Origin: an uncultured Chloroflexia bacterium
Lineage (GTDB): Bacteria > Chloroflexota > Limnocylindria > Limnocylindrales > CSP1-4
Reading direction: 5' to 3'
Assembly: GCA_963776395.1 (NCBI GenBank)
Contig: CAVZML010000005.1
Coordinates: 612,254-676,253 of the forward strand
Length of the DNA stretch: 64,000 nucleotides
Both the position numbers and the translations under genes were made by a program. Shown here piece after piece: positions 3,558 through 46,378 of this stretch. The notes beneath the pieces are model-generated. The model worked only from the letters and a program-made list of their open reading frames with translations. It was not told where the DNA came from and did not search any database. The stretch's first letter is position 1. Each line of letters begins with the position of its first letter.

Positions 3558-3627
3558 CGGGACGCGTGTCGCCGGCGAGGGTCGAACGGTGTCAGGCATT
3601 GGGAAGTCCGGTTCGTTGGTGGGGCTG

Positions 3628-6375: not shown

Positions 6376-6412
6376 GCGGTCGCTCGCCAGCACGCCCGGC
6401 GACGTCCGGTGC

Positions 6413-7042: not shown

Positions 7043-7084
7043 CGGTGCACTCCTGTCGTGGCGCCGCAGCCGCGGCGCTGCTGG

Positions 7085-8239: not shown

Positions 8240-8282
8240 CGGTCACCTCGGGAGCTCGGCACGGGGTTCGTGGCCATGGGAG

Positions 8283-11658: not shown

Positions 11659-11958
11659 CGCGGCTCTTCTGCTCGGGCGATCATGTCGGTCCCTCCCGGC
11701 CCGCGAGCGTGGCGGGCAGACGCGCCGCCCGTGCGCCGGACGACGAAGTCGATTGGCGTCGGAACAGCCGGTGCCAGGTCTTCGGACGAGGGGCGTGTCG
11801 TCGCCGCGAGCCTGCAGTCGGCCTGCCGTACGTCGTGCAATCGTATGCGCGATGTCGTATCGTTGTCAACGCCCGCCGATGCGTCCGGGCGGCGGCCGGA
11901 TCGGGCCGCGTGCGGATGGTCGCTGATCCCGCGGGTCAGTCACGAGGAGCCGGTCGCC

Positions 11959-12876: not shown

Positions 12877-12877
12877 C

Positions 12878-14129
12878 GTGCGGATCACCTCGGTCACGAC
12901 CGCGGTCGTGCAGGCGAACTTCGACTACACCTTCGTCCGGATCGCCACCGACGAGGGCCTCACCGGCACCGGCGAGTGCTTCACTGCCCCAGCGCTCCCG
13001 CGACTGGTGCGCGAGCTGGGGGAGCTGCTGATCGGCAAGGACCCGGCCCACCCGGTCCCGCTCTGGCGCCGGCTCATGACCGCCGTGTCCGGCACCGGCT
13101 CGAGCTCGGGCGCCGGCATCGCCTACAACGCGATCTCGGGGATCGAGACGGCGCTCTGGGACCTGAATGGCAAGATCGTGGGCGTCCCCGCCGTGCGCCT
13201 GCTGGGCGGCGCATTCCGGGACCGGGTCGAGGTGTACGCCGATCTCCACGGGGGCACCGAGCTCCACAGCATCTCGTCGCTCATGCAGTACCGTCGGCCG
13301 TTCTGGACCACCGAGGACGGCCTCACCCACGTCGGCGGCTTCTACTGGGAGGAGGCCGAGGCAGAAGGGGTGTCGATCGATGCCACGGTGAGCCGCTGCC
13401 GCGAGGCCGTGGGGGCCGGGTTCCGGAACGTGAAGCTGGACCTCGACGTGTTCTCCACGGCGCGTGAGGGCACCAGCCGCAGCGTCACCAGCGCGGACCT
13501 CCGCCGGATGGCCGAGATGGCGATGGCGGTCCGGGCCGCGATCGGGGACGACGTGGGCCTGGCCTTCGACTGCCACTGGCGGTTCGACGTCATGACCGCC
13601 CTCGCTGTCGCCGACGCGGTCGCGCCCGCCCGCCCGCTGTGGCTCGAGGACCCCGTCCCGCCCGATCCCGAGGCGATGGCCGCGGTCACCGCGCGGAGCC
13701 CGGTGCCCACCGCGACCGGCGAGAACACGTACCTCCTCGAGGGCTTCGAGGCGCTCCTCCGGAATCGATCGGCGCCACATCGTCACGCCGGACGTCCAGA
13801 AGGCCGGTGGCATGGCCGAATGTGTGAGGATCGGCGACCTGGCCGCGCGTCACTTCGTCCCGTTCGCGCCGCACTGCATTGCCAGCCCGCTCGGGTTGAT
13901 CGCGGCCGCGCACGTCTGCGCGGCCCTGCCCAACCATCTCTGCCTCGAGTTCCACGGCTCCGATGTCCCGTTCTGGGACGAGCTCGTGGTGGGCTCCAAC
14001 CCGGTGATCCAGGACGGTGCGGTGGCGATCCCCGACGGGCCCGGTCTCGGCGTGGAGCTCGACATGGCGGTCGTTCGGCGATACTCGGCGCCAGGCGAGC
14101 CGGTATTCGAGGAGCCGCCCGCGCGCTGA
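12878..14129 (+). CDS. enolase-superfamily (mandelate racemase/muconate lactonising enzyme, MR/MLE) sugar-acid dehydratase-like protein, apparent frameshift near 13775
   Basis: GTG start right after the DapA stop; N-terminal MR/MLE capping domain, then ATGENTYLLEGF; the C-terminal barrel continues in a different frame as ORF 13812..14129 (MAECVRIGDLAARHFVPFAPH...). Confidence 0.65.
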
Positions 14130-14158
14130 AAGGGAATCCGTCGAATGGAGCGTCGACG

Positions 14159-14974
14159 ATGACGGGTCGCGCGTGGTTTGCAGGCAGGACGGCGATCGTG
14201 ACCGGCGCGTCGCGTGGCATCGGTCGCGCGATCGCGGAGCGCTTCGCCGACGAGGGGGCGTCGCTCGTCCTGACGGCGACCTCGAGCAGCCGGCTCGACG
14301 ACGTCGTGAACGCATGCCGCGAGCGAGGCGTCGCGGCGGAGGGTGTCGCCGGCGACCTGGCCGACCCTGACCTTCCGGCTCGACTCGTCGAGGTCGCCGT
14401 CCGGGCGTTCGGATCGGTCGACATCGTCGTATGCAATGCGTTCTGGGACGAGACTCGCCCGGTCACCGCGGCGACGCTCGACGGGTGGGACCGGACGCTC
14501 CGGGTCTCGCTGACGGCTCCGATGCTCCTGGCGCAGGCGGCGCTGCCGGGGATGGTGGCCCGCGGCTCGGGATCGATCGTGCTCATCGGCTCGATGCGCG
14601 GGGTGGCGTCCGGACACGGGTATGCGGCCTACGAATCCGCCAAGGCCGGCCTGCTCGGGCTGACCCGCTCGATCGCGGTCGACTACGGGCCCAGCGGGAT
14701 CCGCTGCAACTGCGTATGCCCGGGCCTGATCCTGTCGGAACGGGCCGTCGACTGGTATGCCGCGAAGCCCTGGCGCAGGGACGCGATGGACGCCGTGGTC
14801 CCGTTGGGCCGTCCGGGAATGCCCTCGGAGGTCGCCAGCGTTGTCGCGTTCGTCGCCTCGGACGAGGCGTCGTTTGTCAACGGGGCGACCCTCTGGGTCG
14901 ACGGCGGCAACGGGGCGTCGCTGCCCGAGAACGCGGCGCTGGAGCTCGCCCGACGGGCGGCGGAGTCACAGTGA
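14159..14974 (+). CDS. SDR-family oxidoreductase
   Basis: TGASRGIG cofactor motif and YAAYESAKA catalytic YxxxK. Confidence 0.85.
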   Translation: MTGRAWFAGRTAIVTGASRGIGRAIAERFADEGASLVLTATSSSRLDDVVNACRERGVAAEGVAGDLADPDLPARLVEVAVRAFGSVDIVVCNAFWDETRPVTAATLDGWDRTLRVSLTAPMLLAQAALPGMVARGSGSIVLIGSMRGVASGHGYAAYESAKAGLLGLTRSIAVDYGPSGIRCNCVCPGLILSERAVDWYAAKPWRRDAMDAVVPLGRPGMPSEVASVVAFVASDEASFVNGATLWVDGGNGASLPENAALELARRAAESQ

Positions 14975-14988
14975 TCGACACCGGTCGC

Positions 14989-16191
14989 CTAGGTCGTGCG
15001 TCGGACGTGGGTGGTCGGGCGATCCAGCAGGTCGGGCGCCAGGCGCACGCCGTGGCCGGGACCGGGATCCGGCGTCAGGGATCCATCCAGCAGCAGCGGC
15101 AGCCCGACCGCGACGTCGCGGTACCAGCCGCGGTAATAGGCGCGCACGATCTCCTGCAGGAACGCGTTCTCGACGCTCAGCGACACGTGGACGCCGACGG
15201 CGAGGTTGACCGGGCCCGTGCAGTCGTGAAGCCCGAACGGAATCGAGTGGACGGCGGCCAGCTCGGCGATCCGCCGCGCCTCGGTCACGCCGCCGCACCA
15301 GGTCGCGTCGGACAGCGCGATCCCTACGGCTCCCGAGGCGAGCAGCTCGCGCTGGCGAAACCGGCTGCCGATATTCTCGCCGGCCGCGATCGGAATCCTG
15401 GTCGACCTCGCCAGCTCCGCGAGCGCGTCGATGTTGTCATTCCGCACGGGATCTTCGATCCACAGGGGGTCGAACCGTTCGACGGCCGCGACGATGCGCT
15501 TCGCCGCGGGCAGCAGCCAGCGCGAGCGCATCTCGATCGCGATCTCCATCCGGTTGCCCACGGCCGCCCTGATCCGCTCGAGGATCGCCACGCCACCGTC
15601 GATCACCGCGCGGCTCGCGAGCTGGCCGCCGTCGGTGTCGAGGGTCGCGTCGAAGGGCCAGATCTTCATCGCGTCGATGTGCTCCGCGAGCAGGCTCTCG
15701 GCCAATGCCTCGGGCGCGTTGAGGAACGCCCACAGGTCCTCGTCCCGACCGCCCGGGGTCTCGATCCCGAACAGGCTGTCCCCGGGCCGCAGGCGGGTGG
15801 ACTGGTAGCGCGGCCCGGCGCACGTGTTGTAGGCGCGGACCGAGTCGCGGACCTTGCCGCCGAGGAGCTGCCAGAGCGGGAGCCCCGTCCTCTGCCCGAA
15901 CACGTCCCAGAGCGCGATGTCGATCGCCGACGCGCCGCGGGCCTCTGCGCCGACGCCCTTGCGCGACCACAGGCGGTACAGCGCGCCCCAGTGGGCAGTG
16001 ATCTGGAGGGCATCCCGCCCTACGAGGTACGGCGCGGCCGTCTCGTGGATGTATGCCGCGACCGCGTCGGCGCCAAAGAACGTCTCGCCCAGGCCGACCA
16101 CCCCGTCGTCGGTCTCCGCGAGCACCCACAGCACGTTCGGCTGGCTGTCGATCTGCACCGTTGCGATCGACCGGATCGTCGTGCCTTTCAT
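14989..16191 (-). CDS. enolase-superfamily (MR/MLE) dehydratase-like protein, second paralog
   Basis: Start at MKGTTIRSIATVQ; MR/MLE pattern with metal-ligand regions (IEDP, AAGEN). Confidence 0.7.
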   Translation of the reverse strand: MKGTTIRSIATVQIDSQPNVLWVLAETDDGVVGLGETFFGADAVAAYIHETAAPYLVGRDALQITAHWGALYRLWSRKGVGAEARGASAIDIALWDVFGQRTGLPLWQLLGGKVRDSVRAYNTCAGPRYQSTRLRPGDSLFGIETPGGRDEDLWAFLNAPEALAESLLAEHIDAMKIWPFDATLDTDGGQLASRAVIDGGVAILERIRAAVGNRMEIAIEMRSRWLLPAAKRIVAAVERFDPLWIEDPVRNDNIDALAELARSTRIPIAAGENIGSRFRQRELLASGAVGIALSDATWCGGVTEARRIAELAAVHSIPFGLHDCTGPVNLAVGVHVSLSVENAFLQEIVRAYYRGWYRDVAVGLPLLLDGSLTPDPGPGHGVRLAPDLLDRPTTHVRRTT

Positions 16192-16256
16192 GGGGCCCTC
16201 CAGGCTGCTCGTGGCGACGCCGATCATAGGGGGACGGCGCCGGTGGTCGGAGCTCC

Positions 16257-17099
16257 ATGAGCGACGCGGGGCGAGCAGCGGGCCGCACGCTGACGATCCG
16301 CTGGCTCGGCCAGGCGGGCTTCGTGCTCTCGGCGGGTGGACCGCGGGTGATGGTGGACCCGTGGCTGTCGGCTCACCCGCTCCGGGCACGCCGTGCTCCG
16401 GAGCTTGCGAGCGTGCCCGATGGCGTCCGGTGGCTGCTCGCGACGCATGAGCACCCCGACCATCTCGACCTCGGGGCGCTGCCGCGGCTCGTCGACCGGT
16501 TCCCCGACCTGCGGATCGTCGTCCCCGAGCCGCTCCGCGAACGGGTCGAGGCGGCCGCGCCGCGGGCGCTGGTTCACGGGGTCCAGCCCGGCGACAGGCT
16601 CGACCTCGGGGCCGCTGAGGTTTCGGTGGTCCACGCCTGGCACGGGGTGGTCGTCGCGGACGGGTACACCGACGGGCACGGCCTGCGCGTCGACGGGCAG
16701 ACGCCGTTCGTGGGCTACGTGCTGGACTTCGGAGAGGTGACCGTCTACCACGCGGGCGACACGGTTCTCGGGCCGGGGCTCGTCGACGAGCTGCGATCGC
16801 TCGGGGTCGGGGTGGCGCTTCTGCCGGTCAACGGGCGGGACCAGGCTCGCGAGGACGCCGGCATCCTCGGCAACCTCGACCCCGCCGAGGCGGTCACGCT
16901 GGCCACGGCGATCGGCGCCCGGGTCCTCGTCCCGATGCATCACGACATGGTCCGGGGGAACCGGGGCCGGGCCTCGCGCGTGGTCGACGCGGCAGCGCGG
17001 GCCGGCGCCCCTCTGGCCGTCCTTCTCCCTGCCCCGGCGATCGATGTCGAGATCGGCCCGGCCATGATGCGGCCGCCGAAGCGGAGCGAGGATCGATGA
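16257..17099 (+). CDS. MBL-fold metallo-hydrolase (possible sugar lactonase)
   Basis: HxHxDH motif THEHPDH; 280 aa; ATGA overlap with the next gene. Confidence 0.75.
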   Translation: MSDAGRAAGRTLTIRWLGQAGFVLSAGGPRVMVDPWLSAHPLRARRAPELASVPDGVRWLLATHEHPDHLDLGALPRLVDRFPDLRIVVPEPLRERVEAAAPRALVHGVQPGDRLDLGAAEVSVVHAWHGVVVADGYTDGHGLRVDGQTPFVGYVLDFGEVTVYHAGDTVLGPGLVDELRSLGVGVALLPVNGRDQAREDAGILGNLDPAEAVTLATAIGARVLVPMHHDMVRGNRGRASRVVDAAARAGAPLAVLLPAPAIDVEIGPAMMRPPKRSEDR

Positions 17100-18055
17100 A
17101 CCCCGTGGTCGGCGAATCGCCTCGCACCTGGACCTGGGACTCGGCCCTCACTGGCGTCGTACCGCCGGTTATCTCGCCGCTGTCCGTCTCCGGACGCCCG
17201 GACCGTGGTGCCCTGGGTCGGGTGATCGGGCATGTCCTCGACCACGGGTGCAGCGGCCTGTTCGTGCTCGGCGGGTGCGGCGAAGGAGCGTGGCTGACGA
17301 CGGCCCAGCGCGGCCAGGTGATCCGAAGGGCGGTCGAGGTGTCGGCCGGTCGCGCGCCCGTACTCGTCGGCGTGATGCTGCCGGCGACGGGTCCGGCGGC
17401 GGAGGCCGCCCGCCAGGCCGAGGCGGAGGGAGCCGACGCCGTGGTGGCAGGCTCGCCGTACTATGGCGCTTCTTCCGCCCTGGCCCAGGAGCGCCACATC
17501 GAGGAGATCCTGCGCGCCGTCTCCCTGCCGGTTCTGCTGTACAACATCCCGCAGGCGACCCATAACCCGGTCCTCCCGGCGACTGCCCGCCGGCTCGCCC
17601 GGGAGCCGCGCGTCCTGGGCATCAAGGACTCGGCCGGGGACCTGGGTGGTCTCATCGGGTTCCTGGGCATCAAGGAGATGCGCCCGTCGTTCCGGGTGCT
17701 GCAAGGCAGCGAGCACGGCGCGTCGTCGAGCCTCCTCCTCGGCGCCGACGGGCTGGTGCCGGGCATGGCGAACTTTGCGCCGGGGTTGTTCGTGGCGCTC
17801 CGCGCCGCAGCGGCGGCCGGCGACGCCGAGCGCTGTCGGAGCCTCCAGGCGGAGATCAGCGATCTCTGGACCCTCCACCTCCAGGGTCACTGGCTGACCG
17901 CGCTGAAGGCGGCATGCGCCCTCGTCGGGCTGGGCAACGGCATCCCCAGCCCGCCGCTGCGCCCCGTCACCCAGGAGGAGCGGCGCGCGATCGCCGCGAT
18001 CCTCGAGCGTCACTCGTTGCTCACCCGAGCGTCGCGGCCGCTCACCCGGGCGTAG
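17096..18055 (+). CDS. DapA-family aldolase, second paralog
   Basis: DapA family pattern including GIKDSAGD (Schiff-base Lys). Confidence 0.7.
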   Translation: MNPVVGESPRTWTWDSALTGVVPPVISPLSVSGRPDRGALGRVIGHVLDHGCSGLFVLGGCGEGAWLTTAQRGQVIRRAVEVSAGRAPVLVGVMLPATGPAAEAARQAEAEGADAVVAGSPYYGASSALAQERHIEEILRAVSLPVLLYNIPQATHNPVLPATARRLAREPRVLGIKDSAGDLGGLIGFLGIKEMRPSFRVLQGSEHGASSSLLLGADGLVPGMANFAPGLFVALRAAAAAGDAERCRSLQAEISDLWTLHLQGHWLTALKAACALVGLGNGIPSPPLRPVTQEERRAIAAILERHSLLTRASRPLTRA

Positions 18056-18120
18056 CGGCCGGGGCTTGCCACTGCCGGCGCCTGGTCGAGGTTACCCATC
18101 GACCGGGCCGGCCGGCCGTC

Positions 18121-18918
18121 CTACTCCGCGAGCATCACGGCTTCGGCGGGGGGCACAAGGTCGTGGATCACGGCCTTGAATGCCTCGACCGCGCCGGTGA
18201 CGTTCTCGAAGCCCCAAACGTTGCGGCCGATCGTGGCGCCGCGCGCGCCCGCCTCGATGATGTTGCGAGCCACCTCCAGTGCAGCGAGGAGCGTGCTCGT
18301 CTTGGGACCGCCGGCGGCTACCAGCGGCGTGGGGCAGTCGGCGACGATCTGGCGATAGGCCTCGAGGTCCCCGCAGTACGGCACCTTGACGATGTCGGGA
18401 CCACACTCGACGGCGCATCGGACGGCCCATGCGATGTCATCGGGGTCGAAGATGATGTGCGGCGAGCCGTCGAAGCTGCGCGGGTAGACGTGGCAGACGA
18501 CCGGCAGCTCGTACCGCGCCGCGTCGCGCACGACATCGGACACCAGGCGCAGGTAGCCTGCCTCCGATGGCCCTCGCAGGAATGCCACGACCGCGATCGC
18601 GTCCGCCCCCAGGCGGACGGCTTCCTCGGCCGTCGCCACGATCTCGAATGCCGTGTCGTCCGGGCGGACGATGCAGCTCTGAACGATCAGCGGGATCGTC
18701 CCCGCGTACGGCTCCCAGATGTGGGCCGCCGGGCCCTTGTGCATGGTGATGGCGTCGGGGCGGCCGGCGGCGAGCGCCGCGATGGTTGGCGCGAGGTGCC
18801 TGAGGCCCGCCGGCATCCCGTCCCCGTAGCCGATGTAGTGGTCGACGGCAACCGAACACAGGCGTCCGGACGGGTGCGAGAACAGGCGGTTCAGCCGCGT
18901 GCTCTTGCCTGTGGTCAC
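18121..18918 (-). CDS. class I aldolase of the DeoC/FbaB (DhnA/LsrF) family
   Basis: 265-aa TIM-barrel aldolase pattern with DIVKVPY (catalytic Lys). Confidence 0.65.
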   Translation of the reverse strand: MTTGKSTRLNRLFSHPSGRLCSVAVDHYIGYGDGMPAGLRHLAPTIAALAAGRPDAITMHKGPAAHIWEPYAGTIPLIVQSCIVRPDDTAFEIVATAEEAVRLGADAIAVVAFLRGPSEAGYLRLVSDVVRDAARYELPVVCHVYPRSFDGSPHIIFDPDDIAWAVRCAVECGPDIVKVPYCGDLEAYRQIVADCPTPLVAAGGPKTSTLLAALEVARNIIEAGARGATIGRNVWGFENVTGAVEAFKAVIHDLVPPAEAVMLAE

Positions 18919-19008
18919 GAGGTCGCCCCCGGGAGATGCGAGACTCCGGTGCTGGCTTGCTCCATGTTGTCCTCCGCGGTTCGATGGTTCTGACTGCCGG
19001 ATTCCCGG

Positions 19009-20085
19009 TCAGGCCGCGCCAATGGCGGTGTCTGTGGGCTCGGAAGCGCGACGGATGGCCGAGGGTCGATCGGGTCCCGGGGGCGGTGCACATGACTCGC
19101 GCACCACCAGCTCTGGCAGGAACACCTGGTTTGCCGGTTCGTCCGCACCCGGAGGCCGCCCAACGAGCGCGATGGCCGCCGCGACTGCAGCGCTCGCCAT
19201 CTCGACCGCCGGGATGCGCACCGTCGTCAGGGGCGGGATCATGTAGCCGGAGAGGGAGAGGTCATCGAAGCCCGTGAGCGACAGGTCGCCGGGAATGTCG
19301 AGTCCGATGCGGTAGGCGGCGTTCAACGCTCCAATCGCGATCAGGTCGGTCGCGGCCATCACAGCCGTCGGCGGCACGCGCAGGGCCGCGAGCGAACGCA
19401 GCCCCGCCCCTCCGCTCGCGGGGTTGTTCTCGGTGGCGACGTCGTAGCCGCGGTGAAACTCGAGGTGGTTGGCGAGCGTCAGCTCGAGGAACGCGGTATG
19501 GCGGGCCGGAAAGTCGCCGTACAGTCGTGGTCCGAGGTAGGCGATCCGCGTGTGACCGAGCCCGACCAGGTATTCCATGACTGCCGCGATGCCGTGGTGA
19601 TCATCGACATCGACGGCGGCGACGCCCACATCGCGCCGCGATCCCCGCGAGAGGCTCACCGTCGGCACCCGGGACTCGCCGAGCTCGCGCAGCACCCGCG
19701 GCTGGTCGCGCATGTCGCCGAGGAGGATGATCGCGTCGCAGTGGCGGGTCTCGAGGACGGCCTTCAGGGCGACGGCCTCGCGGGCTCTGCCGCGTGCATG
19801 CCCCAGGACCACGTTGTAGCCGCGATCGCGCGCAGCCGTGCTCACGGCCTCCACGAGGCCAGGAAAGAATGGGTCGGTAATGTCGCCGACGATGACGCCG
19901 AGGAGCATCGTCCTGGCGCCGCGGAGGGCCCGTGCCACAGGATTGGGCTCGAAGCCCAGGCCGCGGGCGACCTCCACGACGCGATCCCGCGTGTCGGCGC
20001 CGATCCGGACGGTAGGCGGGGCCCCACTGAGGACTCGCGACACGGTGCTCTGCGATACGCCCGCGACCCGGGCGATGTCCTTCAT
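19009..20085 (-). CDS. LacI-family transcriptional regulator
   Basis: N-terminal HTH MKDIARVAGVSQSTVSRVLSG plus periplasmic-binding-like core; the long upstream extension in the ORF track is spurious. Confidence 0.85.
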   Translation of the reverse strand: MKDIARVAGVSQSTVSRVLSGAPPTVRIGADTRDRVVEVARGLGFEPNPVARALRGARTMLLGVIVGDITDPFFPGLVEAVSTAARDRGYNVVLGHARGRAREAVALKAVLETRHCDAIILLGDMRDQPRVLRELGESRVPTVSLSRGSRRDVGVAAVDVDDHHGIAAVMEYLVGLGHTRIAYLGPRLYGDFPARHTAFLELTLANHLEFHRGYDVATENNPASGGAGLRSLAALRVPPTAVMAATDLIAIGALNAAYRIGLDIPGDLSLTGFDDLSLSGYMIPPLTTVRIPAVEMASAAVAAAIALVGRPPGADEPANQVFLPELVVRESCAPPPGPDRPSAIRRASEPTDTAIGAA

Positions 20086-20256
20086 CGTGACCTCGCGAGC
20101 CGTGTCGGGGCGGCGGAGGATGCCCGACACGCGAACAGGTTCGTCGGTCACGGCCGGTCCTCGGGGAGGGCCGCAGGGAGTGCCCGATGCGCGCCCGTCC
20201 CGACCCGAGCCTGACTGTACGGCCCAGGGTCGTTCTGCGACGAGGAGGCGGGAGGC

Positions 20257-24633: not shown

Positions 24634-26456
24634 ATGGGCGCTGCGTTCGGGAGCAGCTCGACGACGGTCGTCGAGCCGGACCAGCTGGGCCGTCCGCGTC
24701 ACCGTCTGGTCATCGATTGGGCGGGGCTCGGCGACGGGTCCATGGCTGCGTCCTCGTTCGACGTGGACGATCTCGACCTCCTCGCCCGCCGACACGATCC
24801 CGCGGACTGGACACCCGTCCTCGAGACCTGGGCACCCGCCTCCGGGCGCCCTCTTCTTCCCTGGGCCGTGGTCCATCGGGCGGTCCGGGCGCCCTTCGCG
24901 CGCCACCGGCACGCTGACGCGTTCTGCGCGCTCGCCGGTGCGCCGGACAGTGCGTCGACGTGTGCCGAGCTGTTCGGATCCGAGGTCGGCTGGCTGCCGT
25001 ACGGCGAGCCGGCCCGGTGCTCGCGCGAATGCTGGCGGAAGCGAGCGACGGCGCGAGCGCGGGGGCAGTCCTCGTACCGCATCTCGGCCTGTTCGCGTGG
25101 GGCCAGACGGAGGCGGACGTCGACAATCGTTGCGCGACCCTGGAGGCGCTGGCGAGGGCGTGGATGGAGCACCTGCTGGTACGGACCGCGGCGACTGCGC
25201 CGCCCGCCGCCGACCTCGACGTCGAGCGTCAGCTTCACGTCGAGCGTCAGCTTCCTGCCCTGCGCGGCCGTGCGTCCGCATCCGGGCCCGTCGTGCTGTC
25301 GGTGGACCGGTCCCTCGTCGCTGTCGCGGATCGACCGGATCTCGCGCGGATCCTCGGCGAGGCCGCGGGCTCGGAGATGACGTCGCCCTGGGAGCCCGGC
25401 GCTGTGGGGATCGTGGGCTCCGCCGCCGGGCCGGACCACGAGGTCGGGCGCGTGCACCTCGTGCCCGGCCTGGGGCTCGTGAGCGCGGGGACGAGCGAGG
25501 CGGCGGCGATGGCACTGGGCATCGTCGCGGGCCATGTCCACCGCGTGGCGGCGTTCGTCGTCGACGCATTCGGCGGCCGCCAGCCCCTGTCCGACCTCGA
25601 CCGCCGGTCATTGGCCTCATCGCCCGTGCCCGCGGCCGACGCGTCCGCGACGGACGGCGGACCGTTCCGCGGGCGGGTGTACATCGTGACCGGGGCCGCC
25701 TCGGGCATCGGCCGCGACGTGGCGCGCCACCTCGCTGCGCTCGGCGCGTCGCTCGCCCTGGGGGACCTCAACGCGGAGGCACTCGAGTCGACCGCGGACG
25801 AGCTCGAGCCACTGGCCGGTCGGCCCGTCACAGTGGCCGGCGACCTGACTGACGAGGCGACCGTCGACCGGCTGGTCGGCGCTACGATCCGCCGGTTCGG
25901 CGGGGTCGACGGCGCGGTCCTGAACGCCGGGATCGCGCTACCGGGCAAGGTCCGTGACCTGTCGGCCGCCGACTGGCGCCGCAGCCTCGACGTGAATGCG
26001 ACATCGCACTTCCTGCTCGCCAAGCGCCTCCTGCCGGTGCTCGAGGCGCAGGGCCTCGGCGGATCGCTCGTGTTCATCGGCTCCAAGAACATGTTTGCCC
26101 CGGGCGCCGGGTTCGGTGCCTACAGCGCGTCGAAGGCCGCGCTCGCCCAGCTCGCCCGGGTCGTCGCCATAGAGGCCGGGCCATTCGGCGTCCGCTCCAA
26201 CATCGTCAACCCGGACAACGTGTTCGGCGGCTCGGCCCTCTGGTCGCCCGAGCTGCGCGCCCAGCGAGCAGCCGTCTACGGCATCAAGCCGGAGGACCTC
26301 GAGGCGTACTACACGCAGCGCAACCTCATGAAGGTACCGATCACCGGTGAGGACATCGCAAAGGGGGTCGCGTTCCTGCTCTCCGATGACGCGAAGCGCA
26401 CGACCGCGTGCGTGCTGACCGTCGACGGTGGCGTCCCGGGCGTGTTCCCGCGCTAG
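24634..26456 (+). CDS. bifunctional class II aldolase (RhaD-like)/short-chain dehydrogenase fusion, apparent frameshift near 25010
   Basis: ATG with AAGGAG RBS; divergent aldolase N-terminal region; the text continues in another frame (ORF 24960..26456: [19 protein letters not shown]...), then an SDR domain ([15 protein letters not shown]). Confidence 0.6.
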
Positions 26457-26482
26457 CAACCACCCATGGAGGTGAACATCAC

Positions 26483-27397
26483 ATGCCCGAGGCAGATGGC
26501 AGCGGCACCAAGCAGTTCCACGAGGACGTCCCGCAGCGCAGCGAACCGTTCTTCCTGAAGGGATCCGCGGCCTACGACTGGGGGATGCAGCATCGCCTGG
26601 CACGTATCTTCAGGCCGGGGAGCGGCCGGACGACGATGCTGGCCATCGACCACGGCTACTTCCAGGGCCCGACGACCGGTCTCGAGCGCGTGGACATCAG
26701 CATCCTGCCCCTCGTGCCATATGCGGACGCCCTGATGCTCACTCGGGGGATCCTCCGGTCCGTCGGTTCCGCCGACCATCCAGCAGGGTTTCGTGTGCGG
26801 GCGAGCGGTGGCCCGTCGATCCTCCGCGAGCTCTCGAACGAGCACATCGCGATGGACGTCGACGACGCGATCCGGCTCGGCGCGGCCGCCATGGCGGTGC
26901 AGGTCTTCATCGGCGGCGAATACGAGACGCAGACCGTCATCAACATGACCCGGCTCGTCGACGAAGGGCTGCGACGCGGCATCCCGGTTCTGGGGGTGAC
27001 CGCCGTCGGTCGCGAGCTCGTCCGCGACAGCCGGTACCTGGGGCTCGCGACGCGCATCTGTGCCGAGCTCGGTGCGCAGGTTGTCAAGACCTACTACTGC
27101 GACGAGGGCTTCGAGCAGGTGACGTCCGGCTGTCCGGTGCCCATCGTCATGGCGGGCGGCAAGAAGCTGCCGGAGCGCGACGCCCTGGAGATGGCGTACC
27201 GGGCGATCGACCAGGGCGCTGCCGGCGTCGACATGGGCCGGAACATCTTCCAGAGCGATGACCCCGTCGCGATGATCCAGGCGGTCCGCAGGGTCGTCCA
27301 CGACGGATACACCGCGGCGGAGGCATTCGACTTCCTGGAGACGCTGAGGCACGAGGCAGGAGTCGGCATCGAGTCCGGCGTGCTGGCGGGCGCCTGA
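26483..27397 (+). CDS. class I aldolase, LsrF/FbaB (DeoC) family
   Basis: GGAGGTGA RBS; LsrF-like pattern with VVKTYY (catalytic Lys). Confidence 0.65.
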
Positions 27398-27461: not shown

Positions 27462-28978
27462 ATGAAGGGTCAGCAGCGACGCGAGCTGTGGTTCGCCACC
27501 GGAAGCATGAACCTGTATGGGGACGACGTCCTCCGACGGGTGGCCGAGGACGGACGCGCGATCGCGCTCGCTCTCGATGCGGCCACGACCATCCCCGTCG
27601 ACGTCGTCGCGACGCCAGTGCTCACGACGCCCGAGGAGATTCGGAGCCTGTGCCTCGACGCGAATGCCGCGCCAGGTTGTGTGGGTGTCGTCCTGTGGAT
27701 GCACACCTTCTCGCCGGCCAAGATGTGGATCGCGGGTCTCGGCGCGCTGCAGAAGCCGTTGGCTGCACCTCCACACCCAGTTCAACCGCGACATGCCGTG
27801 GTCGACGATCGACATGGACTTCATGAACCTCAACCAGTCGGCGCACGGCGACCGCGAGTTCGGCTACATCGGGACGCGCCTGCGCCTGCCCCGCAAGATG
27901 GTCGTCGGGCCACTGGCAGGACCCGACGGTCGCGGAACGGCATCGGCGCGTGGACCCGCGCCGCCTGCGGCTGGCACGACGGCCCGGTCGCTGCGGATCG
28001 CCCGCTTCGGCGACAACATGCGCGAGGTGGCGGTCACCGAAGGCGACAAGGTCGAGGCGCAGCGCCGCTTCGGGTACTCGGTCAACGGCTATGGCGTGGG
28101 CGACCTGGCGCGGGCCGTGCGCGACGTGGCCGACGCGGAGCGGCAGCGCATGGTCGCCGAGTACGACGACCTGTACGAGATGGCACCCACGCTGCGCGGG
28201 CGGCGGGTTCCGATCGCCACGCGCTGCGTCGAGGCGGCGCGGATCGAGGTCGGCCTGCGCGCCTTCCTGCAGTCGGGCGGCTTCAGGTGCGTTCACCAAT
28301 ACGTTCGAGGACCTCGACGGGCTCGGTCCAGCTGCCCGGGATCGCGGTGCAGCGCCTGATGGCCGAGGGCTACGGTTTCGGCGCCGAAGGCGACTGGAAG
28401 ATCGCCGCGCTCGTGCGGACCATGAAGGTCATGGGCGACGGGCTCGACGGCGGGACATCCTTCATGGAGGACTACACCTATCACTTCGGCCCGGGGTGGG
28501 TCCTCGTGCTCGGCGCGCACATGCTCGAGATCTGTCCAACGATCGCGCGCGATCGCCCGTCGTGGAGATCCATCCGCTCTCGATCGGCGGCAAGGCAGAC
28601 CCGGCCCGGCTGGTGTTCACGGCGAGCTCGGGACCGGCGATCAACGTCGGCCATGCATCGACCTGGGCGACCGCTTCCGTCTGTTCGTCAACGAGGTGGA
28701 CGTGGTGCCTCCGGACGAGCCGCTGCCGCGACTGCCGGTGGCCCGCGCGGTCTGGGTGCCCCGGCCGGACCTGAAGACCGCCGCGGAGGCGTGGATCCTG
28801 GCCGGCGGCGCGCATCACACCGAGCTTCAGCCAATCGTTGACCGCGGAGCATCTCGGCCACCTCGCCGATATCGCGGGGGTGGAGCTGGTGACGATCGAC
28901 CGCGAGACGCGCGTCGCGGGCCTGCGGAAGGAGCTCCTCTGGAACGACGCGGCGTGGCGCTTGGGGAGCGGCCGCTGA
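27462..28978 (+). pseudogene. araA: L-arabinose isomerase (araA) disrupted by about 9 single-base frameshifts
   Basis: Collinear AraA-like text ([61 protein letters not shown]) is spread over four ORF-track frames plus hand-translated segments. Confidence 0.8.
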
Positions 28979-29044: not shown

Positions 29045-30043
29045 ATGATCAAGAAGATCATGAACGACCCGGCGCAGGTCGTTCCAGAGCTGCTGGAAGG
29101 CCTGCTGCGCGCGAGTGGCGGGAAGATCGTCCAGGTCGGACCTGTCGGCGCCATCGCCAAGGCGACCATCCCCGACGGCAAGGTTGCGCTGCTGATCGGC
29201 GGTGGAAGCGGCCATGAGCCCTTGTTCCACGGGTTCGTCGGGGATGGCCTGGCCGACGGCGCGGCCTGCGGCAACATCTTCGCGGCGCCGACCCCCGAGG
29301 TCATCCTGGCGGTGACCCGGGCGCTCGACCGGGGCAATGGCGTCCTGTACGTCTACGCCAACTACGCCGGCGACGTCATGAACTTCGACATCGCGGCCGA
29401 GCTGGCCGCCGAGGATGGCATCCGGGTCCGCACGGTGCTGATCCGTGACGATGTCGCATCGGCTCCGCCTGACCGCCAGGAGCTTCGCCGCGGTATCGCG
29501 GGCGACGTGTTCGTCGTGAAGATCGCGGGTGCGGCGGCCTCGATGCTGGAGGATCTCGACGACGTGGTCCGCGTCACCGAGAAGGCACGCGATGCGACGC
29601 GGTCCATCGGGGTCGCCGTCGCCGCAGGATCCATCCCGGAGACAGGCGAACCGACGTTCGTCCTGCCGGATGACGAGATCGAGATCGGCATGGGCGTACA
29701 CGGCGAGCCGGGCGTGAAGCGCCAGAAGATGGCCCGAGCGGATGAGCTCGTGGACCTGATGGCGGGCCAGATACTCGACGACCTGCCGTTCCAGCCCGGT
29801 GACGACGTGTGCCTCCTGGTCAACAGCCTCGGGAGCACCACGATGATGGAGCTCCTGATCACGACCAGGCGCCTGTTCCAGGTCCTCGACGAGCGCCAGA
29901 TCACGGTGCACCACACCGTCGTGGGTCCGTATGTCACCTGCCAGGAGATGGCGGGCTTCTCGTTCACGCTCATGCGCCTGGATGACGAGCTCCGGCAGTT
30001 CTACGACATGCCCGCCAATTCCGTCGGCTTCTCCCGAGTCTGA
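29045..30043 (+). CDS. dhaK: dihydroxyacetone kinase subunit DhaK (Dak1 domain)
   Basis: Dak1 pattern GGGSGHEP and similar; 332 aa. Confidence 0.8.
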   Translation: MIKKIMNDPAQVVPELLEGLLRASGGKIVQVGPVGAIAKATIPDGKVALLIGGGSGHEPLFHGFVGDGLADGAACGNIFAAPTPEVILAVTRALDRGNGVLYVYANYAGDVMNFDIAAELAAEDGIRVRTVLIRDDVASAPPDRQELRRGIAGDVFVVKIAGAAASMLEDLDDVVRVTEKARDATRSIGVAVAAGSIPETGEPTFVLPDDEIEIGMGVHGEPGVKRQKMARADELVDLMAGQILDDLPFQPGDDVCLLVNSLGSTTMMELLITTRRLFQVLDERQITVHHTVVGPYVTCQEMAGFSFTLMRLDDELRQFYDMPANSVGFSRV

Positions 30044-30045
30044 CC

Positions 30046-30686
30046 ATGGCACGTGACTCACTCGACGCCTCCACGCTGGTGGTCGTGCTGCAGGGCGTCT
30101 GTGATGCGATGGGCGACTCCATCGGGGACCTGACGCACGCTGACCAGGCCATCGGTGACGGCGACCACGGGCTCGCGATCCAGCGCGGGGTGCGCGCTGC
30201 CACGTCCGCGCTGCAGTCGATGCCCCCGGTGACGACGTCGGGGCGGTCCTGGCCACGTTCGGGCTGGCGATGCTGAACTCGATGGGTGGGGCGTCCGGTG
30301 CGATCTTCGGGACCCTGTTCCGGCGAGGCGGCGCAGCTGTGCGCGGTCGTGCCGCCTTCGACGCAGAGGCTCTCGCGGTGTTCCTCGAGGGCGGTCTTGC
30401 CGGGGTTCGAGAACGCGGTCAGGCGGCAGTCGGCGACAAGACCCTGGTTGATGCCCTGCAGCCCGCAGCCGAGGCAGCCCGGGCCGCGGCATCCGGGTCG
30501 CTGGAAGACGCCCTCACTGCGGCGGCCGCGGCGGCCGGGGATGGCCTGGAGCGGACGCGCGCGATGCGGGCGACCCTGGGCAGGGCGCGCACGCTCGGGG
30601 ACCGGGCGGTGGGCCACGTCGATCCCGGTGCGCTGTCCTTGACGCTGATGCTGCGCGCGTGGGTGCGGTTGGTCCGCGAAGCGTGA
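30046..30686 (+). CDS. dhaL: dihydroxyacetone kinase subunit DhaL (Dak2 domain), apparent frameshift near 30240
   Basis: DQAIGDGDHG motif in ORF 30046..30276; MLNSMGGASGAIFGTLF continues in ORF 30270..30686 in a different frame. Confidence 0.7.
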
Positions 30687-30738
30687 TCCGCCAAGTCGTC
30701 GACGACGACCGGTGAACGTCGCAGAAGGAGCAGGCCAC

Positions 30739-31897
30739 ATGCCCTCGATGACCGGACGCGAACGCCTCCTACGGACATTTCATCATCAGCAAGCGGATCG
30801 CATCCCGATCGGTCCGTTCCTATGGATCAACAACGTCTACGAGATGTTCAGGCATGTCCCCACTATCGATGACTTCTTCAGTCCCGTGGACTTCGATCCC
30901 TATGCCAAGTTCGTTGAGTACTGCGACAATTTCGGCTTCGATGTCCTGCACACGCTTGCGTACCCCTGGAACGCTTGGGATGTCGACAAGCCATGGGAGA
31001 ACTGGGATATCACCGTCACGTGGGAGGGATACGGCGACGATCGGAAGAAGATCGTCGACGTCCGGACTCCAGAAGGCAACCTGCGAACGACCCAGAAATG
31101 GAGCCGCAACACCACCTACCTGATCGTCTGGGCAACGGATGAGTACCTGATCAAGACGAGTAGGGACTTTGACCTGCTCGTCAAGTACGGGCCTCCCGCC
31201 GATCAGATCGACGTCTCCCCAATCGTCAAGGCACGCCAGGCCACGGGCGATAAGGGTCTCGTTGACTCGCCCAACCACGGCGTCTTCAATACTCTCGCGT
31301 TGTTCCGCGGACTCGAGGACGTGATGGCGGACCCTCTCGTAGACGAGGGCTTCTATCGGACGATGATGGAGCACTTCACGAGCTATGTGCAGCAGCAGAT
31401 CCGAACGGTGGTGGCTGCCGGAGCCGACATCTTCGAGATCGGCGGGAACATGGCGACCAGTGGCGTTGGGCCCAGGTACTTCAAGCAGTTTGTTCTCGAA
31501 TACGAAAAGCGATTGGTCGACACCGTACGTGAGGTCGGAGCGTTCAGCATCTACCACAACTGCGGCGATGCGGCGAAGATCATGCACCTCTACAACGAGC
31601 TCGATATCGACTGTTGGGGGTACTTGACGCCGCCGCCATTCGGGGATGTAGACCTCGATGAGGCATTGAAGATCATTCGCCCCGACATGATCCTGAGAGG
31701 CAATATCGATCAGGTCGACTTCCTCGTGACCGCCAGCACATCCGAGATCCGATCGAAGGGTGGCGGGCGTTCTGGAGAAGGTCATGCCGCGAGGGAACTT
31801 CATCCTGTCCACCACGGACTTCTTCTTCGATGGATGTCCGTACGAGAACATCCAGGCATTTGCCGACGCAGGTCGGGAATTCGGCCGCTACGTCTGA
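30739..31897 (+). CDS. URO-D family methyltransferase-like protein, paralog 4 (low-GC, atypical codon usage); apparent frameshift near 31760
   Basis: GAAGGAG RBS; URO-D pattern; the hand-translated C-terminus VAGVLEKVMPRGNFILSTTDFFFDGCPYENIQAFADAGREFGRYV* is in a different frame from the track ORF. Confidence 0.6.
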
Positions 31898-32020
31898 GGT
31901 CTGCCGGTCAGCGCTCCTCGACCTCCGCCCCCAGCCCGTTCCCGATGAGCCGGCCAGTGAAGGCGATGCGCACCGGCAGGGCGCGCCCGCGGGACCCGGG
32001 AACCCGGGCCCGTACCCGGA

Positions 32021-32773
32021 TCAACCCTGCTGGATTGCCGGTTGCCCGTAGTAGGAGTCGGGACCGTGCTTCCGCCGGAAGTGCTTCTCCAGCAGCGCGT
32101 CGTCGACGGGCTGCTGATCCGGTGCGAGGGCGAGCGTGTTCAGCGCCATCCCGGCGATCGCCTCGAGGGCGATCGCGTTGGTCACCGCCTGGATCCCGCT
32201 GGCCCCCCACGTGAACGGCCCGTGGGACGCGACGAGTACGCCCGGCATGTGGAGGGGGTTGATCCCCTCGGACTCGAAGTGCTCGACGATCACCCGGCCG
32301 GTGTTCGCCTCGTACGCGGCCTCGATCTCGGCGGCGGTCAGCGCCCGGGTGACCGGGACCGGGCCGTGAAAGTGGTCCGCGTGGGTGGTCCCGAGGCACG
32401 GTATCGGCCGGTGGGCCTGCGCCCACGCCACGGCAGCCGGCGAGTGCGTGTGGACGATGCCTCGCAGCTCCGGGTACCGCTGGAGGAGGAGCAGGTGCGT
32501 CGGTGTGTCCGATGAGGGTCGTCGGGAGCCCCATACCGTGCTGCCGTCCTGGATTGAGACGACGACGATGTCGTCGGCTGTCAGGTCGGCGTATGCGACG
32601 CCGCTCGGCTTGATCGCGAACACGCCGGCCTCCCTGTCGGCGACGCTCACGTTTCCGAACGAGAGGACCAGGAGCCCGGCGCGCTCGATGCGCCGATTGA
32701 GGTCCGCGGACTCCTCGCGGAGCTGGTCGTAGCTCACGTCAGGTCCCTCAGAGGCTTCCGTCGAGGTTGGCAA
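32021..32773 (-). CDS. araD: L-ribulose-5-phosphate 4-epimerase (class II aldolase family)
   Basis: Strong AraD-like text: GNVS, KPSGV, SSDTPTH, IVHTHS, TTHADHF, LVASHGPFTWG. Confidence 0.85.
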   Translation of the reverse strand: MPTSTEASEGPDVSYDQLREESADLNRRIERAGLLVLSFGNVSVADREAGVFAIKPSGVAYADLTADDIVVVSIQDGSTVWGSRRPSSDTPTHLLLLQRYPELRGIVHTHSPAAVAWAQAHRPIPCLGTTHADHFHGPVPVTRALTAAEIEAAYEANTGRVIVEHFESEGINPLHMPGVLVASHGPFTWGASGIQAVTNAIALEAIAGMALNTLALAPDQQPVDDALLEKHFRRKHGPDSYYGQPAIQQG

Positions 32774-46249: not shown

Positions 46250-46300
46250 GGGAAAGACCGGCTGATCACAGGTGTCACCGATGACGCGACTCAATACACT

Positions 46301-46378
46301 GGCGCGCCCGACAGGATTCGAACCTGCGACCTTCGGCTCCGGAGGCCGACGCTCTATCCGCTGAGCTACAGGCGCGCG
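46301..46378 (-). tRNA. tRNA-Arg (anticodon CCG)
   Basis: Reverse complement reads GCGCGCCTGTAGCTCAGCGGATAGAGCGTCGGCCTCCGGAGCCGAAGGTCGCAGGTTCGAATCCTGTCGGGCGCGCCA; cloverleaf elements TAGCTCAG and GGTTCGAATCC are present. Confidence 0.85.

Follow-up and report, generated by a model that had tools for sequence, protein, structure and literature searches.

The window analyzed here, a stretch of DNA of 64,000 nucleotides, contains a gene of the uroporphyrinogen decarboxylase (URO-D) family (positions 30739 to 31897 of the window, forward strand) that differs in base composition from the genes around it, is interrupted by a frame break near its 3' end, and is located among genes for sugar catabolism. 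This raises the questions of what the gene encodes, what its product does at this location, and whether it was acquired from another lineage and, if so, when. With modest confidence, we favor a combined explanation in which the gene is an old lateral import, its frameshift is an artefact, and its product has a methyl-transfer role in a sugar operon.

A sequence-only reading of the window had placed this open reading frame between dhaL and araD and had described its protein as URO-D-like, as in an operon at 5.3-11.7 kb, and both descriptions hold. A Shine-Dalgarno-like AAGGAG (30725-30730, forward strand) was read from the sequence with the ATG 8 nt downstream, and the ortholog at locus L001 has GAGGAG at the equivalent position; a scan of 30.5-32.2 kb for promoters and terminators returned zero sites. 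The first reading frame (30739-31758, forward strand) translates to residues 1-340, matches Pfam URO-D, and has full-length homologs of 385 amino acids with which it shares at most 88% identity. The second frame (31760-31897, forward strand), delineated by translation and by alignment of the family, supplies residues 341-385 and the stop codon and includes a conserved ILSTTDFFFD motif. The Pfam URO-D match (PF01208; E = 2e-22; 80 bits versus a gathering cutoff of 23.9) aligns residues 194-380 only, and scores for TIGR01463 (MtaA/CmuA; 61 bits versus a curated cutoff of 235) and TIGR01464 (HemE; 36 bits versus a cutoff of 303) are below threshold. An AlphaFold model (pLDDT 91.8) has as its top PDB match in Foldseek the MtaA of M. 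mazei (4ay8; E = 2e-15; TM 0.71-0.79), with UROD structures next and MetE structures also among the significant fold matches. Alignment and model together reveal a beta-sheet insertion across residues 89-135 that is specific to this protein and its orthologs. Once the frame is repaired by deletion of one extra base at approximately 31755-31759, the gene has a real product of 385 amino acids that belongs to the URO-D/MtaA TIM-barrel superfamily.

The gene had also been described as a fourth URO-D paralog of the window. Three other URO-D genes, denoted here as types B, C, and D, are indeed encoded at 5.3-11.7 kb; however, the gene shares only 21-30% identity with them, as compared to 69-88% with its own orthologs, and it is therefore not a recent duplicate of any of them. 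An alignment of 34 members from several phyla contains 70 invariant columns. As judged from these comparisons, the gene represents a distinct and tightly conserved orthologous group without a characterized member, for which we have coined the name type A. Metagenomes were scanned for sequences close to type A, and none exceeded 60% identity.

Type A is the final gene of a sugar-catabolic operon that comprises, in order, genes for a binding protein, an ATPase, a permease, an M24-family protein, a RhaD-like aldolase/SDR, an LsrF-like aldolase, an AraA-like isomerase, DhaK, DhaL, and type A. The upstream dhaK (29045-30043, forward strand; Pfam Dak1, E = 1e-111) has orthologs with 83-92% identity in L053-L055 and relatives named Aeromicrobium with 76-77% identity. 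The intervening dhaL (30055-30686, forward strand) matches Pfam Dak2 from profile position 41 only and has one frame break. Downstream, an araD-like gene for a class II aldolase/epimerase (32021-32773, reverse strand; NCBIfam AraD subfamily, 311 bits versus a cutoff of 257) is convergent with type A. Between the two lies a remnant of 16 codons from the 3' end of a cydB-like gene (31908-31955, reverse strand), identical to L001 at 46 of 49 nt. Homology between the window and L001 ends at approximately 31955, and in L001 a complete Cyt_bd_oxida_II gene follows type A. The remnant marks a rearrangement breakpoint, with araD being a neighbor that was brought alongside type A later.

The cluster at 5.3-11.7 kb is encoded on the reverse strand. 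It comprises type B (10594-11658; Pfam URO-D, E = 3e-51 over the full length; TIGR01463, 136 bits; HxC and GPGC motifs), a PfkB-family sugar kinase (9656-10597; Pfam PfkB, E = 1e-35; 64% identical to its L055 ortholog), a conserved protein denoted X446 (8283-9623; 75% identical to the gene at the same position in L055) that has no match in Pfam or NCBIfam, type C (7085-8239; Pfam URO-D, E = 2e-24; 69% identical to its L055 ortholog), a corrinoid (B12-binding) protein (6413-7042; Pfam B12-binding and B12-binding_2), and type D (5359-6372; Pfam URO-D, E = 7e-22; HxC and AP[A/S]H motifs; 45% identical to its L055 ortholog). Among the four URO-D proteins of the window, type B is the nearest to MtaA/CmuA, and it is 66% identical to the type B of L002. 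The corrinoid protein, encoded approximately 24 kb from type A, matches NCBIfam models of methyltransferase-cognate corrinoid proteins, all under their cutoffs. Screening against Pfam and NCBIfam identified no RamA-type activase or RACo-type domain in any protein of this operon, and no pterin-binding methyltransferase.

An HxC motif is invariant in all four URO-D types (His273 and Cys275 in type A), whereas the position of the third zinc-ligand Cys, found within GPGC in type B, is occupied in type A by Asp360 (within STTD). Within this superfamily, substitution of a carboxylate for a Cys ligand typifies O-methyltransferases, as opposed to S-methyltransferases (PMC10418091). With lower certainty than its fold and family, we infer that type A functions in zinc-dependent methyl transfer on a methylated sugar. 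It would be a putative zinc enzyme in which Asp360, alongside His273 and Cys275, replaces the third Cys ligand of MtaA, and it would remove or transfer the methyl group of the sugar by acting with the corrinoid protein and the type B, C, and D proteins, whose genes lie 19-25 kb upstream. Once demethylated, the sugar would be processed by the isomerase, kinase, and aldolase of type A's own operon.

A broader and tentative proposal is that the four URO-D types make up, with the corrinoid protein and X446, a cobalamin-dependent O-demethylation system for imported methylated sugars, with methylated deoxyhexoses among the candidate substrates. The sugar would pass through a route of AraA-like isomerase, DhaKL kinase, and RhaD-like aldolase, and the methyl group would pass to the folate pool. 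Such a system would be a non-oxidative counterpart to P450 sugar demethylases, in aerobic-type Actinomycetota and several other phyla. At L055, the genes for type B, PfkB, X446, type C, the corrinoid protein, and type D are contiguous with those for RhaD, DeoC, AraA, and DhaKL, and at L054 MTHFR and FTHFS are encoded immediately downstream.

It is also conceivable, though less likely, that type A is not a corrinoid-dependent methyltransferase but a cobalamin-independent zinc enzyme (e.g., a direct methyl transferase akin to MetE), or a decarboxylase, isomerase, or other enzyme acting on sugar derivatives. The distribution of type A bears on both readings. In other organisms, type A either belongs regularly to clusters that also encode a corrinoid protein, multiple URO-D types, and a sugar ABC transporter, or stands alone among carbohydrate genes. 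A corrinoid protein and/or type C was identified within 10 kb of type A in approximately 18 of 44 GTDB loci and neither was identified in the rest, which, being more than half, favors a corrinoid-independent enzyme. Many of the loci from Acidobacteriota and Planctomycetota lack a corrinoid protein within 10 kb, the Spirochaetota loci have type C beside type A without a corrinoid protein match, and L069 combines type A with other URO-D genes and an ABC transporter with no corrinoid protein called. Stand-alone type A genes are found beside genes for RhaT, SSF symporters, enolase-family dehydratases, GH-like proteins, and aldolases; at one Planctomycete locus type A is located inside an operon for RhaT, enolase, aldolase, and kinase that encodes no B12 protein, which again favors independence from corrinoids. 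The significant fold matches to MetE, the TIGR01463 score far under its cutoff, and the insertion across residues 89-135 point in the same direction. Against this, a corrinoid protein recurs beside type A in Chloroflexota and Zixibacteria and adjoins it in its closest relatives (L002-L006), and where none is nearby it may be encoded far off, as it is in the window. Moreover, MtaA is the best match of type A by both sequence and structure, and the HxC zinc motif is invariant.

The origin of type A was evaluated from its composition, using as a reference 40 Pfam-confirmed gene segments of the window (41 with type A). The GC content of type A is 57.4% as compared to 69.7% for the window (reference-segment mean of 0.695; z = -4.7), and a GC profile is at 55-60% along the gene and approximately 70% in its flanks. 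Its GC3 of 0.774 is the lowest of the 41 segments (reference mean 0.907, sd 0.042, minimum 0.803; z = -3.2; binomial p = 3e-17), only just under that of the adjacent dhaL, which is second lowest at 0.803. The three other URO-D genes and that of the corrinoid protein are unremarkable in this respect (GC3 of 0.87-0.94). The anomalously low GC reported in the sequence-only reading is thus evident, and GC3 falls outside the distribution of the neighboring genes. The accompanying description of A/T-ending codons was overstated, however: while GC3 is the lowest of the 41 segments, G or C still occupies the last position in 279 of 366 synonymous codons (about 76-77%). Lys is encoded by AAG in 93% of cases and Ile by ATC in 96%, and the aaa and att codons that had been cited are therefore rare. 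The strongest shifts in codon usage involve Asp (GAC 57% versus 86%), Glu, Ala, Pro, Val, and Gly.

These data might be taken to indicate vertical inheritance of a native gene whose low GC reflects a high content of D, E, K, F, Y, N, and I residues combined with weak codon bias (e.g., from low expression). Consistent with this, 6.9 of the 12.1 points of GC deficit are at codon positions fixed by the amino acid (the other 5.2 being due to synonymous choice), and the neighboring dhaL has the second-lowest GC3. Comparison with the rest of the family argues otherwise. Across 58 type A loci the GC of the gene tracks that of its flanks (r = 0.95), and the window copy is 9 points under prediction (z = -3.5). 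Type A genes in Chloroflexi of 68-69% GC reach a GC of up to 66.8% and a GC3 of 0.90-0.92, and GC1/GC2/GC3 reach 0.66/0.44/0.90-0.95 among other hosts of 63-69% GC, indicating that the protein itself does not force a low GC. The values of the window copy (0.57/0.38/0.77) instead match the profile of its nearest outgroup relatives, which are encoded on contigs of 50-61% GC. The composition of type A is foreign to a genome of approximately 70% GC.

Gene order and phylogeny were also informative. The 3' end of dhaL is followed by type A in L001 as well, which represents a different organism of 70% GC (84.5% nucleotide identity), and this shared synteny could be expected of a native gene. Type A is nonetheless absent after dhaL in the orthologous operons of L054 and L055 (SBP through AraA, DhaK, and DhaL), and L053 has IS21 debris after dhaL. 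The window copy grouped with P0001 and P0241 in the arrangement (window,(P0001,P0241)) with 100% support, and the sister lineage comprised P0002 and P0003 (100% support), the latter being encoded on a contig of 50% GC. The nearest clade to this group was P0002-P0008, carried on contigs L002, L004, L068, and L069, and the named neighbors were from Acidobacteriota and other phyla, none being Actinomycetota. Likewise, none of 44 GTDB species-representative type A loci were from Actinomycetota, which would count against a native gene but is weak evidence since the scan was motif-based and also missed the source genome; the placement of the host in Actinomycetota in our analysis itself rests only on the DhaK relatives named Aeromicrobium. 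No convincing mobility signature (IS, integrase, tRNA, or direct repeats) was identified around type A, as a native gene would predict, and the cydB remnant was the sole trace of rearrangement nearby. A 16-nt repeat at 30579 and 31975 was considered as an insertion flank and rejected, as one copy is inside dhaL and the match is probably due to chance. Collectively, a native origin appears unlikely, and the sequence-based evidence supports lateral origin, as had been proposed in the sequence-only reading, as the best interpretation for a gene that is a compositional outlier both in the window and in its own family and that is missing from the L054 and L055 operons.

The sequence as given does contain the C-terminal frameshift that had been noted earlier, in the form of one extra base within AAGGG (TCGAAGGGTGG; 31755-31759, forward strand) when compared to the L001 ortholog and all homologs of 385 amino acids, although the exact base is not assignable. 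This is the sole indel in the coding alignment of the window and L001 genes, and removal of one base yields a protein that aligns with the family from end to end. Frame breaks are also present in dhaL (at approximately 30227 in a C5 run, where tblastn matches switch from frame 1 to frame 3), araA (three), the RhaD-like gene, an enolase-family gene, and a luciferase-like gene at approximately 50 kb, for a total of at least eight in the window including that of type A. The breaks outside type A are located at approximately 13790, 25011, 27761, 28200-28320, 28560, 30227, and 50.2 kb. Because at least seven similar breaks are present in other conserved genes, the frameshift in type A most likely reflects an error of sequencing or assembly and not biology. 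A programmed +1 frameshift was ruled out, as the extra base is missing in L001 and all homologs and the site lacks a stop codon, a rare codon, and a conserved stimulator.

Were the frameshift genuine, type A, and perhaps the whole sugar island, would be a decaying pseudogene with GC falling under AT-biased mutation. We consider this improbable, even though the break is in the deposited assembly, where a read-through product of 491 amino acids is called, and even though breaks are concentrated at 13.8-31.8 kb (the enolase-family gene, the RhaD-like gene, araA, dhaL, and type A). Relative to L001, type A has an overall dN/dS of 0.10; the value for the part after the break, 0.09, equals that for the part before it, and type A retains all residues with full or at least 90% conservation in the family alignment. 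The window lineage also has fewer derived amino acid changes than L001 (11 versus 19), and a break is also present in the unrelated luciferase-like gene at approximately 50 kb. Decay as the main cause of low GC3 was ruled out, given that araA has a normal GC3 (0.84-0.91) despite its three breaks and that dN/dS in type A is 0.1. GC content is lower in the window copy than in its L001 ortholog, and parsimony assigns 23 S-to-W versus 3 W-to-S synonymous changes, as well as AT-ward amino acid replacements, to the window lineage; such apparent loss of GC would fit decay and is a poor fit to simple amelioration. However, a dhaK control yielded an S-to-W excess of 12:1 in both lineages, as parsimony does in GC-rich genes, and this strong artefact limits what can be read from the polarized substitutions.

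The sequence-only reading had further considered the transfer to be recent. This is contradicted by the junction of dhaL and type A that is common to L001 and by a dS of approximately 0.62 (dN/dS of approximately 0.10) between the two type A copies, where dhaK dS between related genomes is 0.45-1.05. A very recent insertion of an extra methyltransferase with new substrate specificity between dhaL and araD is therefore highly improbable, despite the marked compositional contrast with both neighbors and a GC3 that has barely ameliorated, as araD arrived later (the 3' remnant of cydB still follows type A, as in L001) and type A is an old, separate orthologous group rather than an added copy of type B, C, or D. 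The preferred interpretation of lateral origin is instead an ancient acquisition, with type A probably having come from a different lineage and having ameliorated poorly since. A common ancestor of this genome and the L001 organism would have taken up the gene downstream of dhaL from a donor similar to the organisms of 50-61% GC that host its closest relatives, and type A would have been under purifying selection ever since.

Taken alone, type A is a fairly ordinary case of old lateral acquisition with a frameshift that is probably an artefact. The wider pattern is of more interest, namely divergent URO-D-fold proteins and a corrinoid protein built into operons for sugar uptake and catabolism. 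This pattern recurs in Chloroflexota, Spirochaetota, probable Actinomycetota, and further lineages; we found no description of it in the literature that was searched, which covered corrinoid/URO-D sugar demethylation and DUF4432. If methylated sugars are demethylated by such a system, it would constitute a cobalamin-dependent route for carbohydrates that otherwise block catabolism and would provide a function for a widespread family that is now annotated as 'uroporphyrinogen decarboxylase.'

Several characterized systems resemble type A in part. Uroporphyrinogen decarboxylase (HemE) shares its Pfam family and fold; in contrast, type A scores far below the TIGR01464 cutoff, has a zinc HxC motif, and lacks a haem-biosynthesis context. 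The methylcobamide methyltransferases MtaA, MtbA, and CmuA (PDB 4ay7/4ay8) share with type A the TIM-barrel fold, the H-x-C zinc motif, and a frequent small corrinoid protein neighbor. They differ in that identity is only approximately 14%, the third Cys ligand is Asp in type A, and type A has an extra beta-sheet insertion of approximately 40 residues within the strands at 89-135 and is encoded in non-methanogens, within operons for sugar catabolism and in many cases with no corrinoid protein gene close by.

The type 1 mlp clusters (Kountz & Balskus, PMC10418091) encode several divergent UroD-superfamily 'MtaA-like proteins' and one corrinoid protein, lack an H4folate methyltransferase, and are patchily distributed and likely horizontally transferred. 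They also encode a RamA/RACE activase, are restricted to obligate anaerobes (mostly Firmicutes), have His-Cys-Cys sites, and are associated with the metabolism of methyl-sulfur or methyl-selenium compounds (PMC10418091). Compared by description, the window cluster is similar in combining several URO-D proteins with one corrinoid protein and no H4folate methyltransferase, but it has no activase domain, its neighbors are sugar transporter, kinase, and aldolase genes, its third-ligand residues are mixed (Cys, Asp, and His), and its host has 70% GC. The aryl O-demethylase methyltransferases of the UroD superfamily (MT I of the OdmB, VdmB, and MtoB type), again compared by description, carry out with a UroD fold the kind of corrinoid-dependent O-demethylation proposed for type A and have a carboxylate in place of a Cys zinc ligand (PMC10418091); they differ in acting on phenyl methyl ethers and in being accompanied by a pterin-dependent MT II and an activase. 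Finally, cytochrome P450 sugar O-demethylases, which act on 6-O-methyl-D-galactose, represent the sole route of sugar demethylation found in the literature that was searched (PMC6292453). They share with the role proposed for type A the removal of a methyl group that blocks sugar catabolism, but they are unrelated proteins that achieve this through oxidative, O2-dependent chemistry.

The gene at 30739-31897 on the plus strand begins with an ATG at 30739, just downstream of an AAGGAG, and is read in one frame to residue 340 at 31758; its last 45 codons use a different frame, which begins at 31760 and reaches the stop at 31897. Removal of one base yields a product of 385 aa, identical in length to its best homologs, P0001, P0002, and P0003 (88, 78, and 76% identity, respectively; 100% coverage each), and an alignment of this repaired protein with 33 family members has no internal gap near the break. 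Pfam places the protein in URO-D, and the sequence-only reading that it is URO-D-like and accompanied by three further URO-D genes is borne out by Pfam matches, the window also holding a corrinoid (B12-binding) protein (CP) and a PfkB kinase at 5.3-11.9 kb. In a search of curated families, none claims the target (MtaA/CmuA, 61 bits against a cutoff of 235; HemE, 36 against 303), and its sole sequence match in the PDB is MtaA (E = 3e-5). Its orthologous group, here denoted type A, retains 55-60% identity and 70 invariant columns across Acidobacteriota, Chloroflexota, Planctomycetota, Spirochaetota, Atribacterota, and others, and only 107 clusters match it at E <= 1e-30 in a library clustered at 50% identity. 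The target belongs to a subfamily of URO-D that is uncharacterised and linked to sugar catabolism.

The other three URO-D genes, denoted types B (10594-11658), C (7085-8239), and D (5359-6372), are all encoded on the minus strand. Type A is 69-88% identical to single genes in the related contigs L001, L002, and L004, while type B is 66% identical to its L002 counterpart and types C and D are 69 and 45% identical to theirs in L055. Pairwise identity between the four types is only 21-30%, which shows four old lineages. Hence the target cannot be regarded as a further copy of the neighboring URO-D genes, and its earlier description as a fourth paralog holds for the number of URO-D lineages in the window but not in the sense of a duplicate.

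The AlphaFold model of the target (pLDDT 91.8) best matches MtaA of M. mazei (TM 0.71-0.79, 14% identity), followed by UROD and, more distantly, MetE. Residues ~89-135 of the model (window ~31003-31143) form four long beta strands, an insertion that is specific to type A and absent in types B, C, and D and in MtaA-like proteins. Alignment of the four types reveals that the H-x-C-G motif is kept in all of them, whereas the third zinc-ligand position is Cys in type B (GPGC), Asp in type A (STTD), and His in type D; this region is missing in type C. A carboxylate replacing the Cys ligand is a sign of O- rather than S-methyltransferases in this superfamily (PMC10418091).

Type A closes a plus-strand operon that codes for, in order, a sugar-binding protein, an ATPase, a permease, an M24-family protein, a RhaD-like aldolase/SDR, an LsrF-like aldolase, an AraA-like isomerase, DhaK, DhaL, and type A. 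The LsrF-like aldolase (26408-27394, plus strand) scores 460 bits, above the NCBIfam equivalog cutoff of 297 for LsrF (3-hydroxy-5-phosphonooxypentane-2,4-dione thiolase); the ABC transporter apart, no other lsr genes were identified in its operon. A minus-strand operon at 5359-11658 has the order URO-D(B)-PfkB-X446-URO-D(C)-CP-URO-D(D) and is conserved in contig L055 (1-5481). X446, a 446-aa protein (8283-9623, minus strand), has no Pfam or NCBIfam match; its counterpart at the equivalent place in L055 is 75% identical. In L055, B-PfkB-X446-C-CP-D lies immediately upstream of RhaD-DeoC-AraA-DhaK-DhaL, followed by FGGY-AraD, and this contiguity indicates that the window segments at 5.3-11.7 kb and 24.6-31.9 kb form one functional unit. 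Neither a RamA-type activase nor a pterin-binding methyltransferase was seen in the URO-D/corrinoid operon of the window or of L055. The stretch between the two operons (11866-20100) comprises further sugar-acid catabolism genes: two DHDPS-family and two enolase-superfamily genes, an SDR, an MBL-fold protein, a second DeoC-type aldolase, and a LacI regulator. In L054, another related contig, genes for MTHFR, DUF5981, formate-tetrahydrofolate ligase, and a formate/nitrite transporter (13769-18096) are located 2-7 kb downstream of the sugar operon, an arrangement pointing to a possible connection with folate C1 metabolism.

On the contigs with the closest type A relatives (L002-L006 and L069), the cluster around type A comprises further URO-D types, a CUT2-type sugar ABC transporter, and a protein resembling DUF4432 or DUF4380, as well as a LacI regulator, which is replaced by a ROK kinase in L002 and L003; CP is present in the clusters of L002-L006. 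We infer that the most likely role of type A is zinc-dependent methyl transfer on a methylated carbohydrate imported by the transporter of its operon. CP would then carry the methyl group, with types B, C, and D serving as partner transferases, and the demethylated sugar would proceed through the isomerase, the DhaKL kinase, and the aldolase steps. The methyl product would be methyl-tetrahydrofolate, with which the folate C1 enzymes near the L054 operon fit. The main alternative is an enzyme of the same fold that works without cobalamin and is either MetE-like or not a methyltransferase. The many type A loci without a corrinoid protein suggest this alternative; CP and/or type C occurs within 10 kb of type A in ~18 of 44 GTDB loci. 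In the loci where neither is nearby, type A is still found amid carbohydrate genes, including RhaT, an enolase-family dehydratase, a class II aldolase, PfkB, and KDPG aldolase at a Planctomycete locus, and SSF symporters, GH-like proteins, an HpcH aldolase, and a xylose-isomerase-like protein at others.

The GC content of the window is 69.7%, and in 300-nt windows it drops to 55-60% at ~30.75-31.9 kb, with ~70% on either side. Compared with 40 reference gene segments whose frame was fixed by a Pfam match, the target has a GC of 0.574 (mean 0.695; z = -4.7), a GC1 of 0.571 (0.701), a GC2 of 0.377 (0.477), and a GC3 of 0.774 (0.907, sd 0.042), the last being below the reference minimum of 0.803 and the lowest among the 41 segments. 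The anomalously low GC noted from the sequence alone is thereby substantiated. When the target is recoded with the pooled codon usage of the window and the same amino acids, its GC is 62.6%; the 12.1-point deficit therefore comprises 6.9 points due to protein sequence and 5.2 points due to synonymous choice. The synonymous shift is highly significant (binomial p = 3e-17), but 77% of codons still end in G or C (Lys, 93% AAG; Ile, 96% ATC), so that the description of its codons as A/T-ending was overstated. The protein family does not impose the amino-acid share of the deficit: in Chloroflexi of 63-69% GC, GC1/GC2/GC3 of type A are ~0.66/0.43/0.90-0.95, while the target (0.57/0.38/0.77) has the profile of relatives on contigs of 50-61% GC. 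Across 58 loci, type A GC tracks flank GC (r = 0.95), and the window copy falls 9 points under prediction (z = -3.5). Types B, C, and D and CP are of normal composition (GC3 0.87-0.94).

Lateral acquisition by an ancestor best explains this foreign composition of type A next to the normal composition of types B, C, and D and CP, the lack of type A in the operons of L054 and L055, and the taxonomic distribution of type A. L054 and L055 (DhaK 83% identical) encode the same operon without type A, with dhaL followed by an AraC-type regulator or by an FGGY kinase and AraD. No Actinomycetota were among the type A GTDB hits in a motif-based scan; the host is presumed to be actinobacterial from its Aeromicrobium-named DhaK relatives. 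In L053, which has the closest DhaK (92% identity), homology to the window starts just upstream of dhaK and stops exactly at the dhaL stop, beyond which (2138-3619) are short ORFs and an IstB_IS21 fragment and no type A. In a neighbor-joining tree, the window copy groups with P0001 and P0241 as (window,(P0001,P0241)) with 100% support, the sister group being (P0002,P0003), followed by P0004-P0008. Support for the entire 385-aa clade is 100%, with Acidobacteriota as the nearest named groups; GC is 50-61% in the hosts of P0003, P0004, P0006, and P0007.

The lateral acquisition proposed earlier is thus likely, but as an ancient event and not the recent transfer that was suggested. The 3.3-kb contig L001 (~70% GC) encodes the last 27 dhaL codons, a homologous spacer, type A (140-1294; 88% amino-acid and 85.8% nucleotide identity to the target), and a convergent cytochrome bd subunit II gene. 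In the window, a 16-codon remnant of a cydB-like 3' end (31908-31955, minus strand) matches L001 at 46 of 49 nt. Homology then stops at ~31955, a rearrangement breakpoint beside an araD-like gene. The remnant indicates that the ancestral order was dhaL, type A, cydB, and that araD was juxtaposed later. The target and its L001 ortholog differ by a dS of ~0.62 (dN/dS ~0.10), comparable with the dS of 0.45-1.05 for dhaK among related contigs. The shared junction and this divergence together indicate that acquisition predates the split of the two lineages. Target GC is below that of the L001 copy, and parsimony with four outgroups, a method that is biased according to a dhaK control, assigns 23 S-to-W and 3 W-to-S synonymous changes to the window lineage (8 and 7 to the L001 lineage), along with AT-ward amino-acid replacements in the window lineage. 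On this reckoning the target seems to have lost GC, and amelioration towards the GC of the host does not appear to be under way. No mobility signatures were found around the target. Genes for tRNA-Arg(CCG) (46300-46375, minus strand) and tRNA-Asp(GTC) (61770-61846, plus strand) are both far from it.

The C-terminal frameshift reported earlier is real in the sequence as given and corresponds to the only coding-region indel relative to L001, an extra base in TCGAAGGGTGG; in the public assembly (761-kb contig), a 491-aa read-through product is called. Downstream of the break, the target is as constrained as elsewhere (dN/dS 0.09), and this segment includes the invariant ILSTTDFFFD motif. Other conserved genes in the window also have frame breaks: an enolase-family gene (~13790), the RhaD-like aldolase/SDR (~25011), araA (~27761, ~28200-28320, and ~28560, its GC3 nevertheless being normal), dhaL (~30227, within a C5 run), and, at ~50.2 kb, a luciferase-like monooxygenase. 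Collectively, these breaks point to an error-prone assembly or widespread gene decay. Given similar breaks elsewhere and the constrained downstream segment, we are fairly confident that the frameshift in the target is an assembly error, with a very recent real lesion being the less probable alternative.

The target alone is of moderate interest; the multi-URO-D/corrinoid sugar system behind it is of greater interest. In the literature searched for sugar demethylation, only a P450-based route was found (PMC6292453). The closest described analogue of the window system is the type 1 mlp clusters of anaerobes (PMC10418091), from which it differs in its partners, predicted metal site, and ecology.
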